DNA of 64,000 nt from an uncultured delta proteobacterium. GTDB lineage: Bacteria; Myxococcota_A; Polyangia; Polyangiales; B10-G4. The DNA lies in assembly GCA_963727445.1 (NCBI GenBank), contig CAVSGI010000001.1, positions 18,227 through 82,226 on the forward strand. Reading direction: 5' to 3'. The notes under the pieces are model-generated. The model was not told where the DNA came from. It saw only the letters and a program-made list of their open reading frames with translations, and did no database searches. A program made the translations under genes and the position numbers. Below are positions 4,311 through 22,053 of this stretch, in pieces (positions within the stretch are counted from its first letter, which is position 1; every line of letters begins with the position of its first letter).

Positions 4311-5288
4311 CCTCTGTGCCAACGTGACGTGAGACAGCTTCCATCAGGTAAATAGTGAGGGTGGAGGAGATGACGTCAGCATGGATCAACACGTTCACGG
4401 ATCGGTACAGGGCTCGCCAGGGCCGCGTCTAGGTCACGGCGCTTCATCGACACCTCGCCGGCGCAGATCTGGGCGACGATGGTCGACGAGGGCGTGTACG
4501 TCGCGTCGATGCGCACGATGTACCGTGTCCTGGGCGGCCAGGGCGAAGTCCGGGAGCGTCGCGACCAACGCCGTCATCCTCCAGCGATGACGCCAGACGG
4601 TCCGAACCAAGCCTGGAGCTGGGACATCACGAAGCTCCGGGGACTACGCCCGTACGAGGCCTTCTACCTGTACGTGATCCTCGACATCTTCAGTCGCTTC
4701 GTCGTGGCGTGGATGCTCGCGAAGCACGAGCGGGCGACGTACGCGACGAATCTCATCGAGCGAGCCTGCGAGGCGGAGGGGATCGAACCGGGGCAGCTGG
4801 TCCTTCACTCCGATCGCGGCTCGCCGATGACCGCGAAGCCCGCGGTCGCGCTCATGGGTCAGCTCGGCATCGACCCGAGCTACAGTCGGCCGCGAACGCC
4901 GAACGACAACCCGTACAGTGAGTCGCACTTCAAGACCTTGAAGTACCGGCCCGAGTACCCGGGCAGATTCGGCTCGTACGAGGACGCTCACGCGTACTGC
5001 TGCGACCTGTTCCCCTGGTACAACCACGAGCATCGGCACTCCGCGCTCTGCTGGCTCACGCCCGCTGCCGTCCATCACGGCCGCGCCGATGCCATCCTCG
5101 ACGCGCGGCAGCGCACCATGCTCGAGGCCTACGATGCGCATCCTGAGCGCTTCGTCCACGGCCCCCCGCGGGTCCGCCGCCTCCCCGAAGAGGTGTGGAT
5201 CAACCAGCCGACATCGGCGATTCAGATCGAAGGATCAGCTCACTGAAATTCATGAAACGAGCTGTCTCAAATTCGTTGACACCTTCCG
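4311..5288 (+). mobile_element. IS3-family element, internally deleted (~980 bp)
   Basis: Imperfect subterminal IRs gtgccaacg..tgagacagct (4316-4339) and agctgtctca..cgttgacac (5260-5282); AAAC duplicated at 4307-4310 and 5289-5292; contains a DDE integrase core. Confidence 0.82.
4479..5246 (+). CDS. IS3-family transposase OrfB (rve integrase core), N-truncated
   Basis: GPNQAWSWDIT, ILDIFSRFVVAW, LHSDRGS, NDNPYSESHFKTLK, WYNHEHRHSAL. Confidence 0.9.
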   Translation: MVDEGVYVASMRTMYRVLGGQGEVRERRDQRRHPPAMTPDGPNQAWSWDITKLRGLRPYEAFYLYVILDIFSRFVVAWMLAKHERATYATNLIERACEAEGIEPGQLVLHSDRGSPMTAKPAVALMGQLGIDPSYSRPRTPNDNPYSESHFKTLKYRPEYPGRFGSYEDAHAYCCDLFPWYNHEHRHSALCWLTPAAVHHGRADAILDARQRTMLEAYDAHPERFVHGPPRVRRLPEEVWINQPTSAIQIEGSAH

Positions 5289-5998: not shown

Positions 5999-6841
5999 GT
6001 GCGCCTGTCCGCTCTCGCTCTGGTCGTGGTGGCGCTCGCCCCGGCGAGCGGGGCGCTCGCGTCGGATTTCTGGGACGAGGTGAAGAGCCCCGGCCTGAGG
6101 AGCTACCGGCGTCACCTGGCGGAAGGCCGTGCTGCGGCTGCCGCCGGCCGCTTCGAGGATGCGCTGAGCGAATCCGCGGTGGCCATCGAGATCATCGAAG
6201 AGCGCCCGGACGCATGGATCCTCCGTGGGCGCGCCCTCGGTGAGCTCGGCCGTCTCGACGCGGCGACCGAAGCCTTCGCCCGCGCTCTCGCGATCGACGA
6301 CGACGCCCTGTCCACGCCCGAGGAGGGCCGTCACGCAGCTCAGCTCCTCGCGGCGGGTGGGCGCTACGATCTCGCGGCGCGCGTCCTGCCGCGCCTCCTC
6401 GGACACATGCAGGCGTCGAGCGCGCGCACCGAGCTCTATGCGCTCTATGGAGACGTGCTCTCCGCGCTCGGCCCGGAGCGACTGGGGGACGCGATCGCCG
6501 CCTATCGCGAGGCCGTGCGCCAGACGGGCCGCCACGATCCGCGGGCGGCCCTGGGGCTCGCGCTCTGTCTTCGCCGGGCGGATCGCGCGGCCGAGGCGCG
6601 CGACATCGCGCGCGGCGTGACGACCCGGGGGCACATCGACGGTCTGCTCCACGCGCTGCCGCTCCCCGAATCGGAGCGCGCGGCGCGGCGCGCGGTGGCG
6701 CTCATGGCCATCGGTGATCGCGAAGGCGCCAAGCAGGCCTGGCGCGACGCATCCGCGGGAGAGTTCTTCGCGGACGAAGCGCGCGCCGAGCTCGCGGCCC
6801 TCGGAGGCCCCACGCGCCCGTCGCGGGAGGACGCAGAATGA
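5999..6841 (+). CDS. Secreted TPR protein
   Basis: Signal peptide; repeated AW..RG..LG..GR...A...F..AL helices. Confidence 0.75.
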   Translation: MRLSALALVVVALAPASGALASDFWDEVKSPGLRSYRRHLAEGRAAAAAGRFEDALSESAVAIEIIEERPDAWILRGRALGELGRLDAATEAFARALAIDDDALSTPEEGRHAAQLLAAGGRYDLAARVLPRLLGHMQASSARTELYALYGDVLSALGPERLGDAIAAYREAVRQTGRHDPRAALGLALCLRRADRAAEARDIARGVTTRGHIDGLLHALPLPESERAARRAVALMAIGDREGAKQAWRDASAGEFFADEARAELAALGGPTRPSREDAE

Positions 6842-7806
6842 AGCGTGCGCTGGCGCTCGCTTTCGTGGCGATCCTCGCGAGCCTCTTGCCTGTCCGCGAC
6901 GCGCGCGCGCAGGAGGTCGACCCCGGCTTCTGGCGCTCGGTGCGCGAGCCCGGATACGGGCGCGCGATGCATCTGGCGCAGCAGGGCATGTACATCCTCG
7001 AGGTGCACGCGCAGCGGCTTCGCGATGGCACCGCAGGGCCGCACGAGCTCAACGCCATCCTCGAGAGCGCCATCGAGCGCTTCGATCTCGCGCACCGCCT
7101 GGCACCGAACGACCCGGTGATCCTCTATCTGCACGCGAGCGCGCTGTCTCAGTGGACCTCGCCCGATGGTGATCACGGAAAGACGCCGATGGACGACGAC
7201 GCGCTCGCGATCTTCGAAGAGCTGCGCGAGCTCGACCCCACCTTCCTCGCGGACCGCGTGGCATTCACCGTCGGCATCATCTACACCCGGGCGCACCGCT
7301 TCGCCGAGGCCGCCGACGAATACCGCGTCGCCATCTCGCGTGCGATCGAGTCCGACTCGACCCACTGGTCGAACCTCGCCGAGGTGACCATGCTCGCGGG
7401 CGACGTCGAGGAGGCGGTGCGCCTCTTCGAGCGCTCCATCGAGATCGCAGACGCCATCGGTCAGTCGCGGGACCTCGCCCTCTGGGGGCTCGCCGTGGCG
7501 CTCGATCGCGTGGGCGAGCACCGCCGCGCACTCGAGGTCGCCGACGACGCGCTCACCAACGACCCCGACGAGCCGATGGCAGCCCTGCGGAGCGAGGGCG
7601 TGTTCTACGAGCCCCCTCACGAGATCTACTGGTATGAAGGCCTCGGCCACGCCGCGCTGGCCCGCCGCGCCGAGACCGCGGAGAGCCGGGCGCTGCATGA
7701 AGCCCAGTCCCGCCAGTCCTTCCGGCGCTATCTCGCGGAGGGCGGCGATGCCTCGCCCTGGGCGGCGCTGGCCCAGCGCCACGCCGACGGGCTGATCGCT
7801 CGCTGA
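6838..7806 (+). CDS. Secreted TPR protein
   Basis: Signal peptide; TPR motifs (SNLAEVTMLAGDVEEAVRLFERSIE); ATGA coupling to the upstream gene. Confidence 0.78.
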   Translation: MKRALALAFVAILASLLPVRDARAQEVDPGFWRSVREPGYGRAMHLAQQGMYILEVHAQRLRDGTAGPHELNAILESAIERFDLAHRLAPNDPVILYLHASALSQWTSPDGDHGKTPMDDDALAIFEELRELDPTFLADRVAFTVGIIYTRAHRFAEAADEYRVAISRAIESDSTHWSNLAEVTMLAGDVEEAVRLFERSIEIADAIGQSRDLALWGLAVALDRVGEHRRALEVADDALTNDPDEPMAALRSEGVFYEPPHEIYWYEGLGHAALARRAETAESRALHEAQSRQSFRRYLAEGGDASPWAALAQRHADGLIAR

Positions 7807-8552: not shown

Positions 8553-9563
8553 GTGAGAGCGTGGAAAATCGAAGGGAGCTTCGGCGTCGAGAACCTGAAG
8601 CTTCACGAGGAAGAAGACGAGGCGCCGCAGCACGGGCAGGTGCGCCTGTCGATGCGCGCCTGGTCGCTGAACTATCGCGACCTCCTGATGGTCCGGGGCG
8701 AGTACGACCCGCGCCTTCCGCTGCCGCACGTGCCCCTCTCCGACGGCGTCGGCGTGGTGGAGGCGGTGGGCTCGGGCGTGAGCCGGGTGGCCGAGGGCGA
8801 CCGGGTGCTGCCGATCTTCGCGCAGAAGTGGTTCAGCGGCACGCCCACCAAGCGTGAGCTCATGTCGGCGCTCGGCGGCTCCATCCCCGGCACGCTCCGC
8901 GAATCCATGATCGTCTCCGAGGAGGCGGTGGTGAAGGCGCCCGCGCACCTGAGCGACGCCGAAGCGGCGACGCTGCCCTGCGCGGCGCTCACCGCGTGGA
9001 GCGCGCTGGTCGAACAGGGCGAGCTCAAGGCTGGCGAGACGGTGCTCATTCAGGGCACGGGCGGGGTCAGCATCTTCGCGCTCCAGATCGCGAAGATGTG
9101 CGGCGCGCGCACCATCGTCACCTCGAGCAGCGAGGAGAAACGCCAGAAGGCGAAGGCGCTGGGCGCGGACGAGACGATCGATTACCGCGCCGACCAGAGC
9201 TGGGGACGCACCGCCAAGGCGATGAGCGGCGGCGAAGGCGTCGACCACGTGATCGAGGTGGGCGGCGCGCGAACCATCGAGCAGTCCGTGCGCGCCGTGA
9301 AGCCGGGCGGCCAGATCTCCGTCATCGGCAACCTCTCCGGCAACACCGCCGAGGTGAACCTGGTCTCGATCCTGATGCGCAACGTGCGCGTCCAGGGGGT
9401 CTTCGTCGGCCACCGCGATGGCCTCACCCGCATGTGCCGCGCCTTCTCTCAGCACACCCTTCGGCCGGTCGTGGACCGCACCTTCCCCTTCGAGCAAGCG
9501 CCCGCCGCATTCGAGCACCTGGCGAGCGCCGCCCACTTCGGCAAGATCGCCATCGCGCGTTGA
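8553..9563 (+). CDS. NAD(P)-dependent MDR-family oxidoreductase (alcohol dehydrogenase-like)
   Basis: SLNYRDL, PLSDGVG, AATLPCAALTAW, QGTGGVS, HFGKIAI. Confidence 0.92.
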   Translation: MRAWKIEGSFGVENLKLHEEEDEAPQHGQVRLSMRAWSLNYRDLLMVRGEYDPRLPLPHVPLSDGVGVVEAVGSGVSRVAEGDRVLPIFAQKWFSGTPTKRELMSALGGSIPGTLRESMIVSEEAVVKAPAHLSDAEAATLPCAALTAWSALVEQGELKAGETVLIQGTGGVSIFALQIAKMCGARTIVTSSSEEKRQKAKALGADETIDYRADQSWGRTAKAMSGGEGVDHVIEVGGARTIEQSVRAVKPGGQISVIGNLSGNTAEVNLVSILMRNVRVQGVFVGHRDGLTRMCRAFSQHTLRPVVDRTFPFEQAPAAFEHLASAAHFGKIAIAR

Positions 9564-9602
9564 TCGAGGTGGTGGGACGGTCGTAGGCTCCCGCTCCTGA
9601 GC

Positions 9603-11462
9603 ATGAGCGTTCGGGACCCCTTCGCAGAGGACGCCAAGGCGCTCCACATCGAGATCGACGCGATCCTGGCGAAGGACCTCGACGACCTCGCCCTCCGAGA
9701 CGCGCTCGAGGCGCTCGAAGAGCGCAAGGCGATCCACCTCGTCTACTACCGGCTGATCCGCTCGCTGCTCGAAAAGAACCCGGTGGTCTTCGGGCCCCTC
9801 GTCCGACCGCGCCTCGACTCCTGGGGCTACGACCGCAATGGGAAGTGGCATCACCCCTGGACCAACGACGAGGGCAAGCGCGATCTCGCCTTCATCCTGA
9901 AGCTCGCCGAGGAGCGCGGGGATGACGCGCTCTTCAAGCGCGCGATGCTCGTCTATCTCGATCGCGCCAAGTGGAAAGACCGTAACGCGCTCTTTCAGAA
10001 GGAGCTCCTCGCCCGCCTCGAGGGAGCCGCCGAGCCTCACGAGCGCGCTTCCGTCTTGTCGCGCTTCGACCGGCTGGGCGTCCTCGACGACGACACGGCC
10101 CTCACCATCTACGCGGCGGCGCCCCTCGCCGGCCGGTCCTTCATCAGCCGTCACCTCCCGTGGCGGCCCTGGGGCACGGACGACGTCGATTTGTTGCCGA
10201 AGCTCCTCGAGGAGACGCGCGATCGCGATCCCGACTTCTACTTCGAGCTCTACCGCCGCCTCGCGGGGGATGCGACCTGGGCAAGGGACGTGGACGTCGT
10301 GCTCCGCGAGGCGAGCGACGACGCGCTCGCGGCGGAGCTCGAGAAGCTCCACCCGCAGCGCTACGTGAAGAACGCGGCGAAGGTCTTCGCCAAGGCGCTC
10401 AAGGAGCGCGACGACGCGGCGCTGCCCTACGTGAGCCGCCACGTGGACGCGGTCGTGCGGGGCTTCTTCGGCCGGGGCGAGTACGGGGATCTCCTGCGCA
10501 TCGCCTATGACCGCGGCTACGACACGCTCTGGGCGGGGCTCCTGCGCCACGCCGCGCCGCCGAAGGACTGGAACGCCGAGGTCCGGCGGCTCGCAGAGGT
10601 CCGTCGTGACGGCGGCGATGCGCGACGGCGCCTGCTCCTCCTCGCCGGCGCCGGCCGCGAGCTCAGCCTGCCGGGCCTGGGCCTCGCGCGGTTGCAGCCC
10701 CTCGAGGACGACACGGCGGTGCTGCTCTTCGAGCGATATCCCGAGCTGCTCCGCGGGCCCTTCAAGCGCAACATCTTCGGGGGCTGGCACCAGCCCTACA
10801 CGAAGCTCGTCGCGCGCGTCCTCGCGGAGGGGGACGAGCTCCTGATCGACTTCCTCGCGAGTCGCTTCGTCACCCGCGGCGGTCCCTACATGAACGAGAA
10901 GGTGCTGGCCTCCGCGGCGACGCTGTCGAAGCACTACGAAGCGCTCCGCGGCGACCCGGTCGCCTTCGCCGAGCGCGCGGCGAACGTCCTCGGCCAGGTG
11001 CCGCCCTTCGTGATCTACGCCTACGAGCTTCTGCTCGAGACGAACCGCCTGGCGCGGCTCCTCTACGAGCACGCGGCCCGGGACTATCTCGCGAGCCCCG
11101 TCGCGATCCGCGATCTTCTCGAGGCGCCCGAGATCCACGCGCAGCGCCTCGCGTTCCTCGCCCTCTCGCTCGACGACGAACGCGCCCGTACCCTCGGCGC
11201 GGCGAATCTCGATCTCCTCGCCGCGACGCTCCTGCGCCCACTCCACCGGCGGACCCGGCTCCTCGCCATGGACGCGCTCGACAACGCCGCGCGCGATGAG
11301 GCGACGGCCGCGCGCGTTCTTCACACCGCGCGCGAGGCGATGTTCCTCCCCGACGTGCGTTACCCGAAGGAGGAGCTGGTCGGGCTCCTCGGGCGCATCC
11401 TCCATCGGCACGCGAGCCTCCGCAGCGAACGCGAGCGGCCGGTCGTCTACGGGAGGGCGTGA
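9603..11462 (+). CDS. Alpha-helical (ARM-like) retron-associated protein
   Basis: 619 aa, Leu/Ala/Arg-rich helical composition, no signal peptide; stop overlaps the SWIM gene start; upstream of the RT. Confidence 0.72.
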   Translation: MSVRDPFAEDAKALHIEIDAILAKDLDDLALRDALEALEERKAIHLVYYRLIRSLLEKNPVVFGPLVRPRLDSWGYDRNGKWHHPWTNDEGKRDLAFILKLAEERGDDALFKRAMLVYLDRAKWKDRNALFQKELLARLEGAAEPHERASVLSRFDRLGVLDDDTALTIYAAAPLAGRSFISRHLPWRPWGTDDVDLLPKLLEETRDRDPDFYFELYRRLAGDATWARDVDVVLREASDDALAAELEKLHPQRYVKNAAKVFAKALKERDDAALPYVSRHVDAVVRGFFGRGEYGDLLRIAYDRGYDTLWAGLLRHAAPPKDWNAEVRRLAEVRRDGGDARRRLLLLAGAGRELSLPGLGLARLQPLEDDTAVLLFERYPELLRGPFKRNIFGGWHQPYTKLVARVLAEGDELLIDFLASRFVTRGGPYMNEKVLASAATLSKHYEALRGDPVAFAERAANVLGQVPPFVIYAYELLLETNRLARLLYEHAARDYLASPVAIRDLLEAPEIHAQRLAFLALSLDDERARTLGAANLDLLAATLLRPLHRRTRLLAMDALDNAARDEATAARVLHTAREAMFLPDVRYPKEELVGLLGRILHRHASLRSERERPVVYGRA

Positions 11463-13045
11463 TGTTCGTCGCCGTCGACTACGCGAGCCCCAGCGCTCTG
11501 GTCAGCACCCGCAAAGACAGCGCCCTCGATCTGCGGAGCGACGGCACCCGACCTGTGCGCCTGCACGCGCGCATCGAAGAGCCCTACGTGCTGCCGGTGC
11601 GCCTGGCGCTACGCGCGCTCGGCGAGGTGGTCTGGTCGGACGATCGCTGGGTGGACGACATGTGGTACGGGTTCATCCTCGACCCGGTCGTCACCGTCCA
11701 CGACGACCGCGTCTTCTTCGAGGCGTTCAGCCAGGACCAGAGCGCCTACGGGTTGGTGATCCTCGATCGCGCCGTGCTCGAGACCGAGGGCGAGGTGGTC
11801 ATCGGCACCACCAACGTGGACTTCACCGCCTGGCTCTGGGCCGCGCTCGGCGAGATGCGGAGCAGCCGAACGACCTGGCTGCGCGTGGGGCCGGAGGGGG
11901 TCGAGGTGCGCACCAGCGGCGGCGGCAGCCGCTTCGAGCCCAAGGTGGAGATCCCCGACCACTGGGTGCGCGGCTTTCTCCAGATGCAGGCGGCGGCGGC
12001 GATGCCGGGCACGCGCCTCGTGTTGAAGCCGGTGGACCTGCTCTCCGCGATCCGCTACCTCCGCTACACCAAGGCCAAGGTGAGCCCCCGCGCCCTGCGC
12101 TACGAGATGCCTCCCGGCGAGGACGCGCGGTTGGTGATCGAGCCCTTCGAGCACGTGGTGCCGCTGCGCGGAGCGGACCACGGCCGTGAAGAGGAGCGCG
12201 TGATCCGCACCTGGGGCCGGCGCCGGCTCCGCCTCCTCGAGCCGCTGCTCCCCTACGCGGACGAGGTGCGCGTCTACCTCAAGGGTCGCGCGCTGCCGAG
12301 CTTCTACGCCGCCCAGCTGCCCGGGGTGACCTTCGTCCTCGGCCTCACCGGCTGGACCGCGAACAGCTTCACCCGGAGCGGGGGGCACGATCTGGCCACG
12401 GGCATCGAAGATGCGGACGAGCGGCTGGTGAACGCCGCGATCGAGGCGCTGCGCGCGCGGCAGGCGGCGACGGCGGAAGAGATCGCGCGCGCCATCTCGG
12501 CGCCGCTGCCCGAGGTGGACCGCGCGCTCGCGCGCCTCTGCCGGCGCGGCCGGGCCATCTTCGACGTCGAGGCGCGCGCCTATCGCCATCGGGAGCTCTT
12601 CGCCGAGCCGCTGGATCTGAAACGGGAAGCGGAGCTCTTCCCGCCGGACCGGCGACGCGCCGAAGCGCGCAAGCTCCTCGACAGCGGGGCGGTCGAAGTC
12701 GAGTCGGTCGCCGTGGAGCAGACCAGGAAGGTCCGAAAGCTGAAGACGCCCGAGGGTCGGGTGACCCGCGAGGTGGTGCACCGCGACCATCGGGTGCGCG
12801 GGAAGATGCCCGGCGTGACCCGCACCGAGATCGTCGTCGCCGAGAGCGGCCGCGTGATCTTCGGCACCTGCAGCTGCCCCTTCTTCGCGGACAACCTCCT
12901 GAACCGTGGACCCTGCGAGCACATGGTGGCGCTCCTCGAGGCGAGCGCGAAGGAGCGCAAGGACGCGCCGACCTCCACTGAGGCGTCGGGCGACGCGAGC
13001 CAGCCAGCGCCGCCGCGACACGACAACCACGGAGAGGACGCATGA
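11459..13045 (+). CDS. Winged-helix + SWIM zinc-finger protein (retron-associated)
   Basis: C-terminal GTCSCPFF..GPCEHMVAL (CxC-x12-CxH); wHTH-like AEEIARAISAPLPEVDRALARLCRRGRAIFD; N-terminal LDPVVTV...FFEAFSQDQSAYG. Confidence 0.85.
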   Translation: MMFVAVDYASPSALVSTRKDSALDLRSDGTRPVRLHARIEEPYVLPVRLALRALGEVVWSDDRWVDDMWYGFILDPVVTVHDDRVFFEAFSQDQSAYGLVILDRAVLETEGEVVIGTTNVDFTAWLWAALGEMRSSRTTWLRVGPEGVEVRTSGGGSRFEPKVEIPDHWVRGFLQMQAAAAMPGTRLVLKPVDLLSAIRYLRYTKAKVSPRALRYEMPPGEDARLVIEPFEHVVPLRGADHGREEERVIRTWGRRRLRLLEPLLPYADEVRVYLKGRALPSFYAAQLPGVTFVLGLTGWTANSFTRSGGHDLATGIEDADERLVNAAIEALRARQAATAEEIARAISAPLPEVDRALARLCRRGRAIFDVEARAYRHRELFAEPLDLKREAELFPPDRRRAEARKLLDSGAVEVESVAVEQTRKVRKLKTPEGRVTREVVHRDHRVRGKMPGVTRTEIVVAESGRVIFGTCSCPFFADNLLNRGPCEHMVALLEASAKERKDAPTSTEASGDASQPAPPRHDNHGEDA

Positions 13046-13070
13046 GCGTCCTGTCGATAGAGATGATCAC

Positions 13071-13226
13071 GACCGGTGAGGAGCTCGAAGCGAGATCAGC
13101 CTTCTGCGCGGTGTTTCGCCGTGCTGGCGTATTGAGCTCATCACATCGCCGCGGTCCCAGCGCACGAAACGCCGGGAGCCACGGGTCCAGGGCCCCGAGA
13201 GTGGTCCTTCGGGTTCCTCACCGGTC
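13071..13226 (+). ncRNA. Retron msr-msd ncRNA (predicted)
   Basis: GACCGGTGAGGAGCTCGAAG (13071-13090) pairs fully with CTTCGGGTTCCTCACCGGTC (13207-13226): 18 WC pairs + 2 G-U; internal hairpins at 13109-13174 and 13178-13205; ends 21 nt before the RT ATG. Confidence 0.8.
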
Positions 13227-13247
13227 ACCTTCTCGTCGGGCGGGCGC

Positions 13248-14528
13248 ATGAGCCTCCTCAGGCGCTTCCTCTCCTTCTTGTGGCGCCTCTTCTTCGCCTC
13301 GAAGAAGCTCGAGCGGCGCACGACGCGCCACGGCCAGGGCGACCTCGATCAGACCCACGAGGAGGTCGATCTCTCGGGCGGTCCGCTCAAGCCCGCGCAT
13401 CGACGCAGGGCGCTCCACGACCCGCGTCTTCTTCCAAAGCCCGCGCGAAAGAACCCCTGGGAGAAGCCGCCGAAGGTGATGGACGCCGACGAGGCCGGCC
13501 GCCTCTTCGCGCCGACGATGCGCACCAAGAGCCGGCGGCTGCGCACCCTCGTCGCCGACGAGGAGCAGCTCGCGCGTCACGACCTCCCCGCCTGGAAGAG
13601 CGAGGCCGAGGTCGCAGCGGCCCTCGGCGTGACCCGCGGCGAGCTGCGTCATTTCAGCATTCATCGCCAGCGTGAGCGCACCCCCCACTACGTGACCTTC
13701 GCCGTGCCCAAGCGGAGCGGAGGCGAGCGATTGATCTGCGCGCCGAAGGCGCAGCTCAAGGCCTTGCAGCGAACGCTCCTGAAGGAGCTCATCGAACACC
13801 TTCCCGTTCACGACGCGGCCCACGGCTTCCGCAAGGGCCGCTCGGTGCGCACCGCCGCCGAGGCGCACGTCGGCCGCGCGGTCGTCGTGCGCATGGACCT
13901 GCGCGACTTCTTCGGAACAGTCACCTTCGTGCGCGTGCGCGGTTACCTGGTGGCGATGGGTTATGGCTACGAGGTCGCCACCATCCTCGCGGTGCTGATG
14001 ACGGAGGCGCCACGCCAGCCGGTGGCCGTGGGAGACGACGTCTTCCACGTCCCCGTCGGCCCGCGGAGCGCGGTGCAAGGTGCGCCCACCAGCCCCGCGA
14101 TCTGCAACGCGATCGTCCACAAGCTCGACGCGCGCCTCTCGGGCCTCGCCGCCGCGCTCGGGTTTCGGTACACCCGCTACGCGGACGACCTCACCTTCTC
14201 CAGCGACGATCCCGAACGGGTCGGCCGGTTGATGCACGCCGTGCGGGAGATCGTGCGAGACGAGGGCTTCGCGCTCAACCGCGACAAGACGCGGGTCATG
14301 CGCAAGGGCGGCCACCAGACGGTCTGTGGCGTCACCGTCAACGAGACGCTCGGGCTCAGCCGAAAGACGCGCAAGAAGCTGCGCGCGATGATCCATGCGG
14401 AGAAGCAGAGTCGTGACCGTGGCGAGGCCGACGCCTCGCGCACGGCGATGATCGAGGGCTGGCTCGCCTATCTGTCGATGCTCAATGAAGAGCAGGCCGA
14501 GGCGCTCCGCGTGCGCTGGGTCAGCTGA
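13248..14528 (+). CDS. Retron-type reverse transcriptase
   Basis: PKRSGGERLICAP, AAHGFRKGRS, DLRDFF, QGAPTSPAICN, YTRYADDLTFS, LNRDKT, QTVCGVTVN; no maturase or endonuclease domain. Confidence 0.95.
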   Translation: MSLLRRFLSFLWRLFFASKKLERRTTRHGQGDLDQTHEEVDLSGGPLKPAHRRRALHDPRLLPKPARKNPWEKPPKVMDADEAGRLFAPTMRTKSRRLRTLVADEEQLARHDLPAWKSEAEVAAALGVTRGELRHFSIHRQRERTPHYVTFAVPKRSGGERLICAPKAQLKALQRTLLKELIEHLPVHDAAHGFRKGRSVRTAAEAHVGRAVVVRMDLRDFFGTVTFVRVRGYLVAMGYGYEVATILAVLMTEAPRQPVAVGDDVFHVPVGPRSAVQGAPTSPAICNAIVHKLDARLSGLAAALGFRYTRYADDLTFSSDDPERVGRLMHAVREIVRDEGFALNRDKTRVMRKGGHQTVCGVTVNETLGLSRKTRKKLRAMIHAEKQSRDRGEADASRTAMIEGWLAYLSMLNEEQAEALRVRWVS

Positions 14529-15336
14529 GCTCGTCGTTCAACAGGTCGAGTCGGGCGAGGCCCGGCTTCAGCTGCTCGCGCCAGCACCGCTCGAAAACCA
14601 GCACCTGACGCACGGGCGAGAAGAGCCCGAGGGCGGCGCGCGCCGGCTCGGGGTGGGCGTCGAGGGTGCGCGCGTCCTCGCCCACCTCGCGAAGGATCCG
14701 CGCGGCCTGCTCGCGATGCGGCGCGACGGTGGTCGCCACCAGATGACGCCAACTCGTGAGCGTCGAGGGACGAAAGCGCTTCAGCGACTCCTCGACGTAG
14801 GCCCAACCGAATCGCTGGTGGCCCTCTTCGTCGGCGACGGTCGCGTCCAGCACCCGGCGCACCGCACCATCGGGACAGCGCTCGCGCAGGTCCTCCACGA
14901 ACGCCACCGAGATGGTCTCGTTGATGAGGAGCATCGAGATCGCCGTGGTGAGCGCGCGCTCGGGCATGGGCGCGCGGAGGTAGCGCTCGGGATCGCGCAG
15001 CTCGACGGGGTCCGGAAGCATCGGCGTCGCCCCGAGGGCCTCGCAGAGCGCCGCGCAGAGCGCCGTGTGCCGGATCTCGTCCACCACCAGGTCCGCCGCG
15101 CCCGCGTAGACCTCCAGAGGATCGCCCGCGCCGACGACCTCGGAGGCGAAGCGCGTCATGATCTGGATGGAGCGGAACTCGGTGCGCACCCGCTGCTGCC
15201 AGGTTCGGCGCGCCTCCTCGAGGAGCGACGGATCGTGCGCCTGCGGATCGAAATCCGACAGGTCGACGCCATCCCCCAGCACCTCGGCTGAGAGCGCCGC
15301 GAAGGGTGGTCCAGCGCGCATGAGCGGACGGGCCAT
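14521..15336 (-). CDS. Ferritin-like di-iron protein
   Basis: TEFRS..., DEIRH, NETIS, DEEGH (paired E / ExxH ligands). Confidence 0.8.
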   Translation of the reverse strand: MARPLMRAGPPFAALSAEVLGDGVDLSDFDPQAHDPSLLEEARRTWQQRVRTEFRSIQIMTRFASEVVGAGDPLEVYAGAADLVVDEIRHTALCAALCEALGATPMLPDPVELRDPERYLRAPMPERALTTAISMLLINETISVAFVEDLRERCPDGAVRRVLDATVADEEGHQRFGWAYVEESLKRFRPSTLTSWRHLVATTVAPHREQAARILREVGEDARTLDAHPEPARAALGLFSPVRQVLVFERCWREQLKPGLARLDLLNDELS

Positions 15337-19198: not shown

Positions 19199-20253
19199 AA
19201 GCTATCTCAAAACTCGTGGGATCTAAGTCTGCGAGGATTAAGAAGAAAGCGTTGGGGGATCGACGTCGGATCGGTTTTCTGATCTACGGTCTGAATGGAT
19301 CTGACCGATCAGCAGTGGAAAATCCTGGAGCCCCTTCTTCCTGAGCGCGACAGACGTAGGGGCAGCCCAGGAAGGCCACGACGGTCTGCTCGTGAGGTGC
19401 TCGACGGCGTGCTGTGGATTCTACGCACCGGTGCGCAGTGGGGCGATCTGCCAGGACGTTATCCGCCGTACCAGACATGCCACCGACGCTATCAGCAGTG
19501 GGTCGACGAAGGTGTGATGGAGCGAATGCTGCGAGCGTTGGCTGAAGACCTACGGGATCGCGGGAAGCTGGACCTGACAGAAGGATTCATCGACGGCACC
19601 CACGCGGGGGCCAAAAAGGGGGGCCTTGCGTTGGAAAAACTCGTCGCGGGAAGGCCACCAAGATCATGGCAGTCGCAGACGGCAATGGTCTTCCTATCGC
19701 CGCTCTCGATTGCGAGTGGTCAGCGTCATGAGGTCACGCTCGTCGACGAAACGTTAGACGCGGCCTTCTTGGACGAGCTGCCGCAACGTTTGATCGGAGA
19801 CAAGGCGTACGACAGTGTTCGCGTGGCTGCAGAACCTCCGACGGCTCGTTACCCGCTACGAACGCCGGCCAGAAAACTTCCTGGGCTTCGTGCGGCTCGG
19901 CTGTCTCGTCATCCTGCTCAGACAGTTCTGAATCACCCAGTTCGAGAAACTCGTCCGAGATTGATTTATCAGGCGCCGGAGGGAGGGTCGCACCCCGGGG
20001 TGTCCGGCCGTGCCAACGCGCACGCAGTGTCGCACCCGCGTTGGCACGGACGGACAGGGGACCTTGCGCGAGCGCTCTCTAGTCGGCAAGAAGGCGTAGC
20101 GGTGCCGTCAGGCGACGCGGAGCTGGATTGCCGACGAGACCACGTTGCTGGTCTTGCCTCGCGCTCGCATCTGCAAGGTCCCCGAGCCCCGGGGTGGGAC
20201 CCTCCCTTCGGCGCGGTCATGCAGTTCGCGAGCGCTGAGTTTTGAGATAGCTT
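19199..20253 (+). mobile_element. IS5-family element, decayed
   Basis: Perfect IR ctagaagctatctcaaaactc (19195-19215) / gagttttgagatagcttctag (20237-20257), including a CTAG target duplication. Confidence 0.9.
19295..19931 (+). pseudogene. IS5-family transposase (frameshift type), disrupted
   Basis: [31 protein letters not shown] with an A5G6 slippery run; [16 protein letters not shown] and [16 protein letters not shown] in other frames; extra frameshift and a deletion after GDKAYDS. Confidence 0.88.
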
Positions 20254-22053
20254 CTAGCCGCCGAAGCTGGTCTCCAGGCCGATGTCGGCGATGCTCCCCT
20301 CGGGGCCGCCCGAGTCGATCCCCGAATCGATCCCCGAATCGAACCCCGAGTCCATCCCCGAATCGATCCCCGAATCGATCCCCGAATCGAACCCCGAGTC
20401 CATCCCCGAATCGAACACGCACGCCGGGCTGGAGAGGCAGTCACTATCGGCGCAGTCGACGTCCATATCGCAGTCGTTGTCGACACCGTCGCGACAGGAG
20501 ATCTCGCTGGGACACTCCGGATCCAGCCTGCACCCGCAACCCGAGTCTATGCCGCTGCCCGTGTCCACCCCCGTGCCCGTATCCACGCTCCCATCCGGCA
20601 GCCCAGCATCGAAGCAGCTCGGGTCTAGCGGTTTCATGCACATGCGCGTGCTCGGCGCCTCTCCGGTGTCGGTGCAGCTCCCCGACACGCAGAGCCAAAG
20701 GTGCTGGGTCCCGGACTGGGTCCCCTCGGTTACACATGGATCGCCCTCACACCCGAACCACATCTGATCCGTGGTGTCGCAAGTTCGGGTCGTGTCGACG
20801 GTCACTGTGCAGCTCTGCTGCGAGATCCGCGTCGGGCCCGGCACGCAGCTTCCGGAAGCGTCACAGGTGTAGGGCGTGGTCATGACCGTCTGGGTGCCCG
20901 CGCCCATGCAGATCTGGTCGGGCATCGCGTCTTCGAGAGACCCACAGGCGCCGACCACTTCGTCGTCGGGGCAATCCGCGTCGCTCGCGCATCCGACGCA
21001 CGCGCGCATCCCTTCGTCACAGGTGGTGCTGCCGGCGCATGGATCGCCGCCCGGTGTACAGCTTCCGTCCGCGGCGCACGTGCCGGGCGCGGTGCAGAAG
21101 AGGCCGTCGTCGCAGGCCGCGCCCGCGCCGCCCGTGTTGGTGCAGGCGCCCGCCGTGGCGTCACACGCGTCGGTGGTGCACGCGTCCCCGTCGTTGCAGG
21201 TGACGCAGGCGCCGCCGCAGCAGCTCTGGCCCGTGCGACACAGGGCGGTGCGAACGCAGACGTCCCCTTCGCAGCGCGCGAGCTCGCAATCGGCGGGCTG
21301 GCAATTCGCGCCCGCGCCGGTCTCGACGCACCCGGCGCCGTACTGACAGCCGTTCATCGGATCGCAGACCGGCGAGTCGGTGGACGCGGTGCAGAGATCG
21401 TTGCGCGCCTGGTGGATGCACTCGCCCCGGAAGCAGACGTCGTCTGTGCACCCCACCCCGTCGTTGCAGTCGAGCTCGGTGCGGCACGCGGGCTCGACGC
21501 CCCCGTCCGCCGTGCCGCCGTCGACCTGGTCCGGCAGCCCGGTGGCGGGGTAACGGCTCGGCTGACAGTCGCCGTTCTGGTTGCAGCTGGAATCCGGGCT
21601 CTCGCAGGGGTCGACGTAGAGGCACTGCGCGTAGAAGCGGAGCCTGAGGACGATGGCGTGGCCCTCCACGTAGCCGCTGATCGCGCGCACCACCGCGATC
21701 GGGTCGGCGCTGCTCTCGTCGTAGAGCCGCCCCTCGATTCGGTAGAGCCGCGTGGGGTCGTCGTCTGCCGGGACCAGCGTGTGGGTGACGGGCCAGCTCC
21801 CGCCGGTGTCGGGATTGACGATGTCCTGCAGCGCCAGGCGGAGCTGCTGGGGTGCGCTTCCGTCGCCTCCAGGAACCGCCGCACCTCGGTCGGCACCCCA
21901 GGCGAGGATCTCGATGTCGCGCGCCACCTCGCGCACGGCGCGGTCCGCTTCGAAGACCACGGTCACCTGCGTCGCGGGCCTCGGATCGGGGCAGCCGCCA
22001 GCGGCGAGGACGAGGGCGAGAGCGACGGGCGCGACCGAGACCCGCGACATCAC
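20254..22053 (-). CDS. Cys-rich repeat surface lipoprotein
   Basis: AAGGC lipobox; CNDGxxCTxDxC repeats, CRDGVDNDCD, C-terminal DSG(M/F/I) repeats. Confidence 0.82.
   Translation of the reverse strand: MMSRVSVAPVALALVLAAGGCPDPRPATQVTVVFEADRAVREVARDIEILAWGADRGAAVPGGDGSAPQQLRLALQDIVNPDTGGSWPVTHTLVPADDDPTRLYRIEGRLYDESSADPIAVVRAISGYVEGHAIVLRLRFYAQCLYVDPCESPDSSCNQNGDCQPSRYPATGLPDQVDGGTADGGVEPACRTELDCNDGVGCTDDVCFRGECIHQARNDLCTASTDSPVCDPMNGCQYGAGCVETGAGANCQPADCELARCEGDVCVRTALCRTGQSCCGGACVTCNDGDACTTDACDATAGACTNTGGAGAACDDGLFCTAPGTCAADGSCTPGGDPCAGSTTCDEGMRACVGCASDADCPDDEVVGACGSLEDAMPDQICMGAGTQTVMTTPYTCDASGSCVPGPTRISQQSCTVTVDTTRTCDTTDQMWFGCEGDPCVTEGTQSGTQHLWLCVSGSCTDTGEAPSTRMCMKPLDPSCFDAGLPDGSVDTGTGVDTGSGIDSGCGCRLDPECPSEISCRDGVDNDCDMDVDCADSDCLSSPACVFDSGMDSGFDSGIDSGIDSGMDSGFDSGIDSGIDSGGPEGSIADIGLETSFGG
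20310..20415 (-). repeat. 12-nt tandem coding repeat (DSGx, about 9 copies)
   Basis: Repeated ccccgaatcgat-like units. Confidence 0.85.

Follow-up and report, generated by a model that had tools for sequence, protein, structure and literature searches.

The window, by which we mean the whole stretch of 64,000 nucleotides analysed here (contig CAVSGI010000001.1 of assembly GCA_963727445.1, from an uncultured delta proteobacterium), carries on its + strand a putative retron in the order solenoid gene, SWIM gene, RNA, reverse transcriptase (RT) gene. The 202-nt gap between the SWIM gene (11459-13045) and the RT gene (13248-14528) harbours the predicted template RNA. The RT, a protein of 426 aa that falls in the Mx65 clade (see below), matched the PADLOC model RT_XIII with E 1e-131 and a score of 437.7 bits, compared with 318.7 bits for the runner-up model, which identifies it as an RT of clade 10. 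Its YADD motif is present; region X reads DAAH instead of NAxxH, and region Y reads VCG instead of VTG. The SWIM protein (528 aa) is a zinc-finger protein of the type XIII cluster-114 type and a putative effector, recognized by PADLOC SWIM_XIII (E 9e-142) and by Pfam SWIM. Read by eye, it contains the finger motif CxCx12CxH and an acidic motif Dx7Dx4Ex32Dx38E, the published spacing of the type XIII acidic motif ending in x37E (PMC7736814, in excerpt). The accessible part of the same source describes the type XIII arrangement as a clade 10 RT with a linked SWIM protein, and with a HEAT/ARM-like gene in many members (PMC7736814).

The 619-aa protein encoded upstream of the SWIM gene (9603-11462, +), an all-helical solenoid of the helical-repeat kind, gave no match in Pfam, PADLOC or NCBIfam. 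Its AlphaFold model (pLDDT 89.7) is nearly all helix; a fold search with this model returned HEAT/ARM proteins as top matches, at a TM of only ~0.2, and the ESM Atlas returned nameless clusters at 0.90 and HEAT-bearing clusters at 0.88-0.89, which are to be regarded as leads only. A weak match to WGR_XIII was seen in 2 of 16 homologues. Judging from the modelled fold, the protein is probably the HEAT/ARM-like accessory protein of type XIII; a homologue was present in all 15 clade loci checked and, in addition, in L254-L256 (41-45%).

Further upstream on the same strand lie the genes of two TPR proteins and of a zinc-binding dehydrogenase (5999-7806 and 8553-9563). Two other ORFs look by eye like transposases, namely 4479-5246 (IS3-type, integrase core) and 19295-20245 (IS), the latter directly followed by the one 20-bp long-range repeat that the window has besides that of the RNA, centred at 20094 (region ~19900-20300). 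A scan of 9300-14700 for promoters and terminators found none of either; because no promoter-like site was found in the window, the RNA would be transcribed on the + strand together with the SWIM and RT genes. The genome (assembly 85.6% complete) contains a single RT match and a single RNA match.

Relatives of the locus and the Mx65 family

Searches with the RT provided 80 loci each from genomes and metagenomes, to which loci from whole genomes were added. In the loci of the closest RTs, 116-129 nt separate the arms of the terminal repeat, compared with ~170-260 nt in most others. After removal of duplicates (L081, L083 and L191, identical to L005; L163, to L002; L192, to L001; L206, to L004) and of loci cut by a contig end (L084, L162, L195), 20 members were left, and 19 of these were aligned by sequence alone. 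The twentieth, L204, was left out for its inserted hairpin, a small extra hairpin (L204:1037-1085) located between the predicted branch G and the msr hairpin. It should be noted that the members are kin, so that counts among them overstate independence. Two candidates for compact members, L074 and L079, have short repeats but were rejected for poor alignment, lack of a full model match and a position outside the RT clade.

In a midpoint-rooted FastTree of 123 of the 230 RT segments, a single clade of 27 tips, with a support of 0.998, unites the window with L225-L227 and the other compact loci, and L257 is placed outside. The RNA keeps its position before the RT in every full-length clade member. 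The only clade member that had not been planned for, L165, has an even shorter RNA (L165:1138-1262) with an msd hairpin of only ~15 nt; its msDNA would be ~45 nt, and no SWIM match was found upstream within that locus. The RTs of L225 and L227, 427 aa from their ATG, belong to a 24-member cluster with the 427-aa protein P0124 of M. xanthus DK1622, with which the RT of the window shares 57% identity over 428 columns. In three genomes in the family of G1036, two of them those of L225 and L227, the RT is 59-60% identical to that of the window, and identity to the 485-aa RT of L257, confined to the core, is 43%. The length of 485 aa is taken by us to mark the Mx162 type.

The RT gene of Mx65 has 1284 nt (PMC8934634, in excerpt), and the available text of PMC6868368 assigns to this retron a GAGC priming context and a change of the N of NAxxH. 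Both the GAGC context and the changed N were found in L225 and P0124, and P0124 retains VTG. From length, motif and organism we firmly infer that P0124 is the RT of Mx65, no sequence being itself labelled Mx65. A covariance model for Mx65 has been published (PMC13712802, in excerpt); among the 17 type XIII rows of a retron census supplement, in the portion available, Mx65 does not appear (PMC10849725).

The RNA supports the same placement. Our model R1, built from 19 sequences from outside the Myxococcaceae, gave 102 bits for L225, 97.5 for L227 and 99.8 for the window, and at most 37 for 100 other searched loci. The RNA of the window and the Mx65-type RNA are homologous from end to end, the window RT groups with the Mx65 RT rather than with the longer type XIII RTs, and the three-gene order solenoid-SWIM-RT with the RNA is identical in L254-L256. 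Because the window groups with the retron taken above to be Mx65, its compact RNA corresponds to the known size of Mx65 and is not unusual. On these sequence comparisons, the locus appears to be a further member of the Mx65 family of type XIII, with a corrected branch G.

Some variation around this arrangement was noted. In L218, L224, L216 and L217 the solenoid gene follows the RT or converges on it; SWIM was not found within 14-15 kb in L218 and L224 or within 8.9 kb in L216, and is located 2.7 kb upstream in L217. Two type XIII retrons occur within a few kb of each other in L256 (tandem) and L035 (convergent). Among the 120 closest RTs listed, 11 (P0025, P0033, P0037, P0042, P0046, P0057, P0075, P0091, P0096, P0110 and P0115; 518-536 aa) carry a WGR domain (PF05406), which is C-terminal in the two that were read; in the accessible part of the published description of type XIII, WGR is located on the accessory protein (PMC7736814).

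Other searches were mostly negative. Rfam, applied to 12500-13800 with E up to 10, gave four chance matches, none of them in the intergenic stretch. No relative of the RT was found among viral contigs, nor any RT match at E 1e-95 in 201 genomes of the phylum of G1034, although one close RT among the listed matches is named from Opitutaceae. No carrier of the RNA was recognized among the sequencing runs listed as matches, all of whose shares were < 0.2. Reads of runs X1 and X2 gave short contigs corresponding to 13091-13331 (one differing letter) and 13065-13200 (four differing letters); the end of the latter at 13200 is taken as chance.

Structure of the template RNA and the predicted priming guanosine

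The putative RNA is enclosed by the arms 13071-13090 and 13207-13226, of 20 nt and 90% complementary, with an interior of 116 nt, as the first-pass annotation of this DNA had described. The only two non-Watson-Crick pairs, G13083-U13214 and U13085-G13212, are both G-U on the + strand. The annotation had used them to argue for an RNA read from this strand, and the argument extends to the whole family: the outer stems of the 20 members, which are kin and whose stems were found by Watson-Crick scoring alone, contain 18 G-U positions vs 2 A-C. Folding gave z = -5.83 for the + strand, with the 20-bp stem kept, and z = -3.66 for the - strand, both values being inflated because the region had been chosen for its repeat. 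The first Mb of the genome has 23 comparable 20-bp repeats, the window two and a shuffle one. Given this choice of region, and since repeats of the kind are not rare, the case rests on the homologues.

The complete 5' arm of the closing stem (13071-13098) consists of the 20-bp outer arm, a CGA interior bulge and a 5-bp inner arm that ends with A13098. It faces 13201-13226, which contains the 3' arm and, at its beginning, G13201, the predicted first template base; G-T occupies these columns in 25 of 25 rows. The extension of the stem by GAUCA/UGGUC, proposed earlier as an alternative, is present in the MFE fold and covaries. With 25 distinct, largely independent rows and an alignment model built without the inner stem, 93.6% of its cells are paired vs 78.1% in shuffles (0 of 500 shuffles reach the value; slid controls 4-53%), and nine double changes were observed vs 1.7 in shuffles. 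In the 20 members, with the 3' G-T as part of the pattern and three branch Gs assigned manually, 84 of 100 cells are paired vs 25-42 when the stem is slid, and when arms were swapped between members the comparison was 64 of 80 cells paired vs 43. Thus, the comparison of homologous SWIM-RT intergenic regions that had been suggested as a check revealed both conservation and covariation. In contrast to the earlier view of it as a bulge bearing the branch G, CGA is a variable interior loop among the members.

According to the available text of PMC6868368, the retron stem ends directly 5' of the G in AGC, the context being CAGC in Mx162 and Sa163 and GAGC in Mx65; retron RNAs are also described as having 'two opposing G' (PMC7736814, in excerpt). 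In the window, G13099 lies in CAGC, directly 3' of the extended stem and opposite G13201. When the 3' side was anchored by sequence, the best-pairing upstream G fell in AGC in 17 of the 20 members; the remaining three were assigned manually, and the search pattern itself included the 3' G-T. The same rule placed it in AGC in 22 of 25 later loci, the three misses being due to a misplaced 3' anchor, and in the alignment made with the model lacking the inner stem, AGC and the opposing G-T occur in all 25 distinct rows. Conservation and the published AGC rule together point to G13099 as the branch guanosine, whose 2'-OH would prime the reverse transcription.

The msDNA itself is predicted to span 13137-13201 on the - strand, starting with the C copied from G13201, with a 3' end uncertain by a few bases. 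Retron names carry the length of the msDNA (PMC6868368, in excerpt). The distance from a conserved CGCC to the opposing G is 55 nt in the window, L225 and L227, and 65 nt counted from the opposing G end 10 nt before this CGCC in L225 as well as in the window (13137). Because it is transferred from L225 and L227, which have the same CGCC-G spacing, the length predicted for the window msDNA is ~65 nt; the expectation of an msDNA much shorter than that of Mx162 is thereby supported.

Two hairpins are predicted in the interior. The msr hairpin (13107-13123, +) has 7 bp, two of them G-U, and a UUU loop; 13099-13101 are able to pair below it with 13126-13128. All of its cells are paired in the 19 sequences, with double changes in two pairs, and the hairpin is also present in myxobacterial RNAs of the long type XIII, for example L178, L169, L168 and L171. 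In the 25 later loci the base helix beneath is weak, with 82% pairing and with one of its pairs disrupted in 15. A second msr helix, of GGC with the conserved CGCC, was considered and abandoned, its columns being invariant and hence devoid of a covariation signal to read. The msd hairpin (13149-13184, -) would have 15 bp in the cDNA, three of them G-T, and six of its eight consensus pairs show double changes. The RNAalifold consensus, composed of the msr hairpin, the short helix below it and the msd stem, has 94.2% of cells paired and 9 of 19 pairs double-changed, and its msr and msd covariation score exceeds those of all 500 shuffles, the structure having been derived from the same 19-sequence alignment that scored it.

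The wobble pairs of the msd stem are distributed in the opposite way to those of the outer stem. On the + strand, the msd stems of the 20 members contain 22 A-C and 2 G-U positions, so that within one molecule the G-U to A-C ratio switches from 18 : 2 to 2 : 22. Because A-C on the RNA corresponds to G-T in the cDNA, this switch locates the DNA part, and thereby extends the strand argument made from the outer stem. Folding energies were less telling: the msd cDNA alone is no stabler than shuffles (z -0.90), and with RNA parameters the - strand gives the more stable msd fold in 16 of 20 members, with DNA parameters in only 13 of 20.

The first-pass annotation had drawn a different RNA, with priming by a bulged G13092 or G13090 and an interior made up of the hairpins 13109-13127/13157-13174 and 13178-13205. 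Bulge and hairpins can indeed all be drawn, and the first hairpin is 76% paired in the 19 sequences, above its slid controls (38-59%). It is drawable because a TTTCG-like word is common to the msr loop (13109-13118) and to the predicted cDNA loop (13165-13174), a likeness partly kept in kin without covariation. However, it has a single double change, compared with 0.7 in shuffles, and 14 of the 19 sequences disrupt one of its central pairs; the second hairpin is 57.4% paired vs 57.0% in shuffles, and both clash with the covarying helices. In addition, each of the two guanosines is a G in only 8 of the 20 members, and in the 25 later loci G13090 is conserved in none and G13092 in two, whereas the published rule (PMC6868368, in excerpt) demands an AGC whose G comes immediately after the stem. 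This version of the RNA is therefore very unlikely. That the repeat arose by chance, belongs to the repeats of the host or acts as a terminator is hardly credible at all, for, common as similar repeats are in the first Mb of the genome and empty as the Rfam search left the intergenic stretch, the RNA has a single genome copy, stands before the RT in full-length clade members, shows covariation and the strand switch of wobbles, and has no terminator-like site.

We consider it highly probable (roughly 0.88) that 13071-13226 encodes the msr-msd template RNA of a type XIII retron of the Mx65 family, primed from G13099 and yielding an msDNA of ~65 nt.

A reading frame bridging the SWIM and RT genes

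An open reading frame of 69 codons (13042-13251, +) crosses the RNA gene; it begins with an ATG that overlaps the SWIM stop and ends with a TGA that overlaps the RT start. A GGAGAGG (13031-13037) precedes the ATG. The translation of this bridging frame gave no match in Pfam; MSVLSIEMITTGEEL presumably resembles CinA starts.

In a first count, 3 of 17 loci had the exact form seen in the window, and an early control that included the true arrangement gave 8 of 14 bridged loci vs 5.2 expected. Eight frameshift controls per locus, which retain both ends and shift the frame alone, lowered the expectation to 1.9 for the same 8 of 14 under a strict overlap rule. With wider windows, set after inspection of the data, the count was 13 of 14 vs 2.4 expected, or 13 of 15 once the bridge-less L203 is included; L220 and L222, with gaps > 500 nt and no bridge, were left out. 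With windows fixed beforehand, 22 of 25 later loci were bridged vs 5.25 expected, and the three misses, kin of L226, have the bridge if the next ATG serves as RT start. These later loci are of one class, all the bridged ones use one frame and some have the same core as L003 or L225, so that they represent few independent events. A bridge is absent in L196 and L203. Among long-type XIII loci it is rare, with 2 of 59 vs 0.12 expected, and 4 of 85 vs 0.8 under the strict rule; in five such loci (L010, L045, L054, L060, L024) a frame of 95-153 codons connects the SWIM stop with the RT start.

Across relatives the bridge runs in all three frames of the RNA, and its peptide is not conserved. The lengths before and after the msr loop co-vary in compensating frames (2+0, 1+1, 0+2 mod 3) in 15 of the 16 bridged loci listed, and this compensation carries more weight than the count of the later loci. 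The bridge start has a stronger Shine-Dalgarno match than the RT start in 13 of 16 loci, often marginally, and acidic SWIM tails yield Shine-Dalgarno-like matches regardless.

A promoter-like motif, TTGAC-N17-GA(T/G)(A/G)A, was noticed in the coding tail of SWIM, 82-89 nt before the msr loop, in L002, L003, L004, L164, L225-L227 and L259-L284; it was not found in the window, L001, L205 and L203.

Two interpretations have to be weighed here against a selected function of the bridge as such. It may be a by-product of an ATG in the SWIM tail, of ATGA RT starts, of a GC-rich structured RNA and of shared descent, the ATG itself coming from an internal promoter element or from Asp codons of the SWIM tail. 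The TTGAC-N17 motif does overlap or abut the ATG in most kin, and a transcript starting there would not include the ATG; open frames over the RNA are frequent in any case, the later loci are of a single class and a single frame, and the relaxed windows were set post hoc. Against this explanation stand the frameshift controls (8 of 14 vs 1.9, 13 of 14 vs 2.4 and 22 of 25 vs 5.25), the compensating length changes in 15 of the 16 bridged loci listed, and the window, L001 and L205, which are bridged in spite of having no TTGAC motif. The by-product explanation is a serious one, to which we would give about one chance in three.

Alternatively, what is kept might be read-through of the SWIM stop, leading to a SWIM-linker-RT fusion, rather than restarting of ribosomes. 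SWIM and RT are in the same frame, and this frame is open, in 8 of 14 loci vs 2.4 expected, and the RT frame is open across 27 of 34 distinct cores. However, read-through is impossible in the window, L001, L004, L225 and L226, all of which are bridged; 30 of 34 cores have the +1 frame open, the four exceptions bridging in the other frame, and the SWIM stop varies between TGA and TAG. Read-through therefore appears improbable.

Taken as a translational relay from SWIM to RT, kept by selection and with translation as its prediction, the bridging frame has in our judgement about even odds of being real. The same balance applies to its more general form, namely that Mx65-family retrons would keep a peptide-indifferent frame over their template RNA, along which restarting ribosomes would unwind the stem and the msr-msd and so reach the RT start. 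No retron report of a frame crossing msr-msd was found in the literature searched, outside which lay most subscription papers, including the original Mx65 work.

Comparison with known retrons and proposed function

With Retron-Mxa2 (Mx65, M. xanthus), the window shares the solenoid-SWIM-RNA-RT order, the msr hairpin, the msd hairpin and their spacing; the N of NAxxH is replaced in both, and a bridge is also present in L225 and L227. The window differs from Mx65 in its priming context (CAGC vs GAGC), in a linker before the msr hairpin that is 3 nt shorter (span 103 vs 106), in an unrelated outer-stem sequence, in the VCG of its RT instead of VTG, in a SWIM tail without the TTGAC motif and in a bridge that uses a different frame of the RNA. 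With type XIII retrons at large (RT clade 10, including Mx162, Sa163 and Ne144; Mestre et al., 2020, PMC7736814, in excerpt), it has in common RT_XIII, SWIM_XIII and the upstream helical-repeat gene, whereas other type XIII loci mostly have ~170-260 nt between the arms, a long msd stem and rarely a bridge. The type VI retrons (Retron-Sen3, Retron-Vpa2), as presented in the accessible part of 10.64898/2026.04.27.721009, are similar in having an ORF and a ribosome-binding site within the RNA scaffold, which couple translation and folding; however, the type VI frame encodes a small toxin, while that of the window family crosses msr and msd, in three frames and with no conserved peptide.

Retron RTs prime from a 2'-OH, with formation of a 2'-5' bond, and copy toward the 5' end of the template, which is then trimmed by RNase H. 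In the mechanism that we propose, the ends of the RNA would pair up to A13098:U13202, and the RT would prime from the 2'-OH of G13099, begin on G13201 and copy through the msd hairpin to ~13137. By comparison with Mx65-like loci, the product would be a branched DNA of ~65 nt with one hairpin; after trimming by RNase H, the msr hairpin and a short stretch of RNA-DNA overlap would remain of its template. The complex of RT and msDNA most likely keeps the SWIM protein, together with the solenoid protein, in an inactive state until a phage infects. This restraint, which is drawn by analogy with other types of retron, is the weakest step. A literature search for tests of type XIII retron defence found none, no type XIII RT was among 20 solved-structure matches, and vertically inherited retrons may serve other functions (PMC7736814, in excerpt).

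If the bridge is a relay, ribosomes leaving SWIM on the long operon mRNA would restart on it, cross the RNA gene and stop at the RT start; this passage, suggested by the conservation of the frame, would couple translation of the RT to that of SWIM. Two exclusive states of the RNA could then be envisaged, namely a translated mRNA, with the RT matched in amount to the effector, and a folded primer-template, which would arise from RNA that is not translated, or by transcription from the putative internal promoter of many kin.

As a retron RNA, the stretch is ordinary, and it had been correctly recognized as such, with the branch point now corrected. The present analysis contributes a model of the Mx65 family that is resolved to single bases and backed by covariation, comprising the start, the branch G and the stems formed at the RNA level and at the DNA level. 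The bridging frame is the one lead here that could be new. If it is what we suppose, it would explain how an RT gene located behind a very stable RNA structure in the middle of an operon is translated, and would account for the matching of the amounts of effector and RT. Translation would then decide whether msDNA forms, and interference of a phage with translation could tip the balance; in addition, any recoding of the msd in the Mx65 family would have to keep the bridge frame open.
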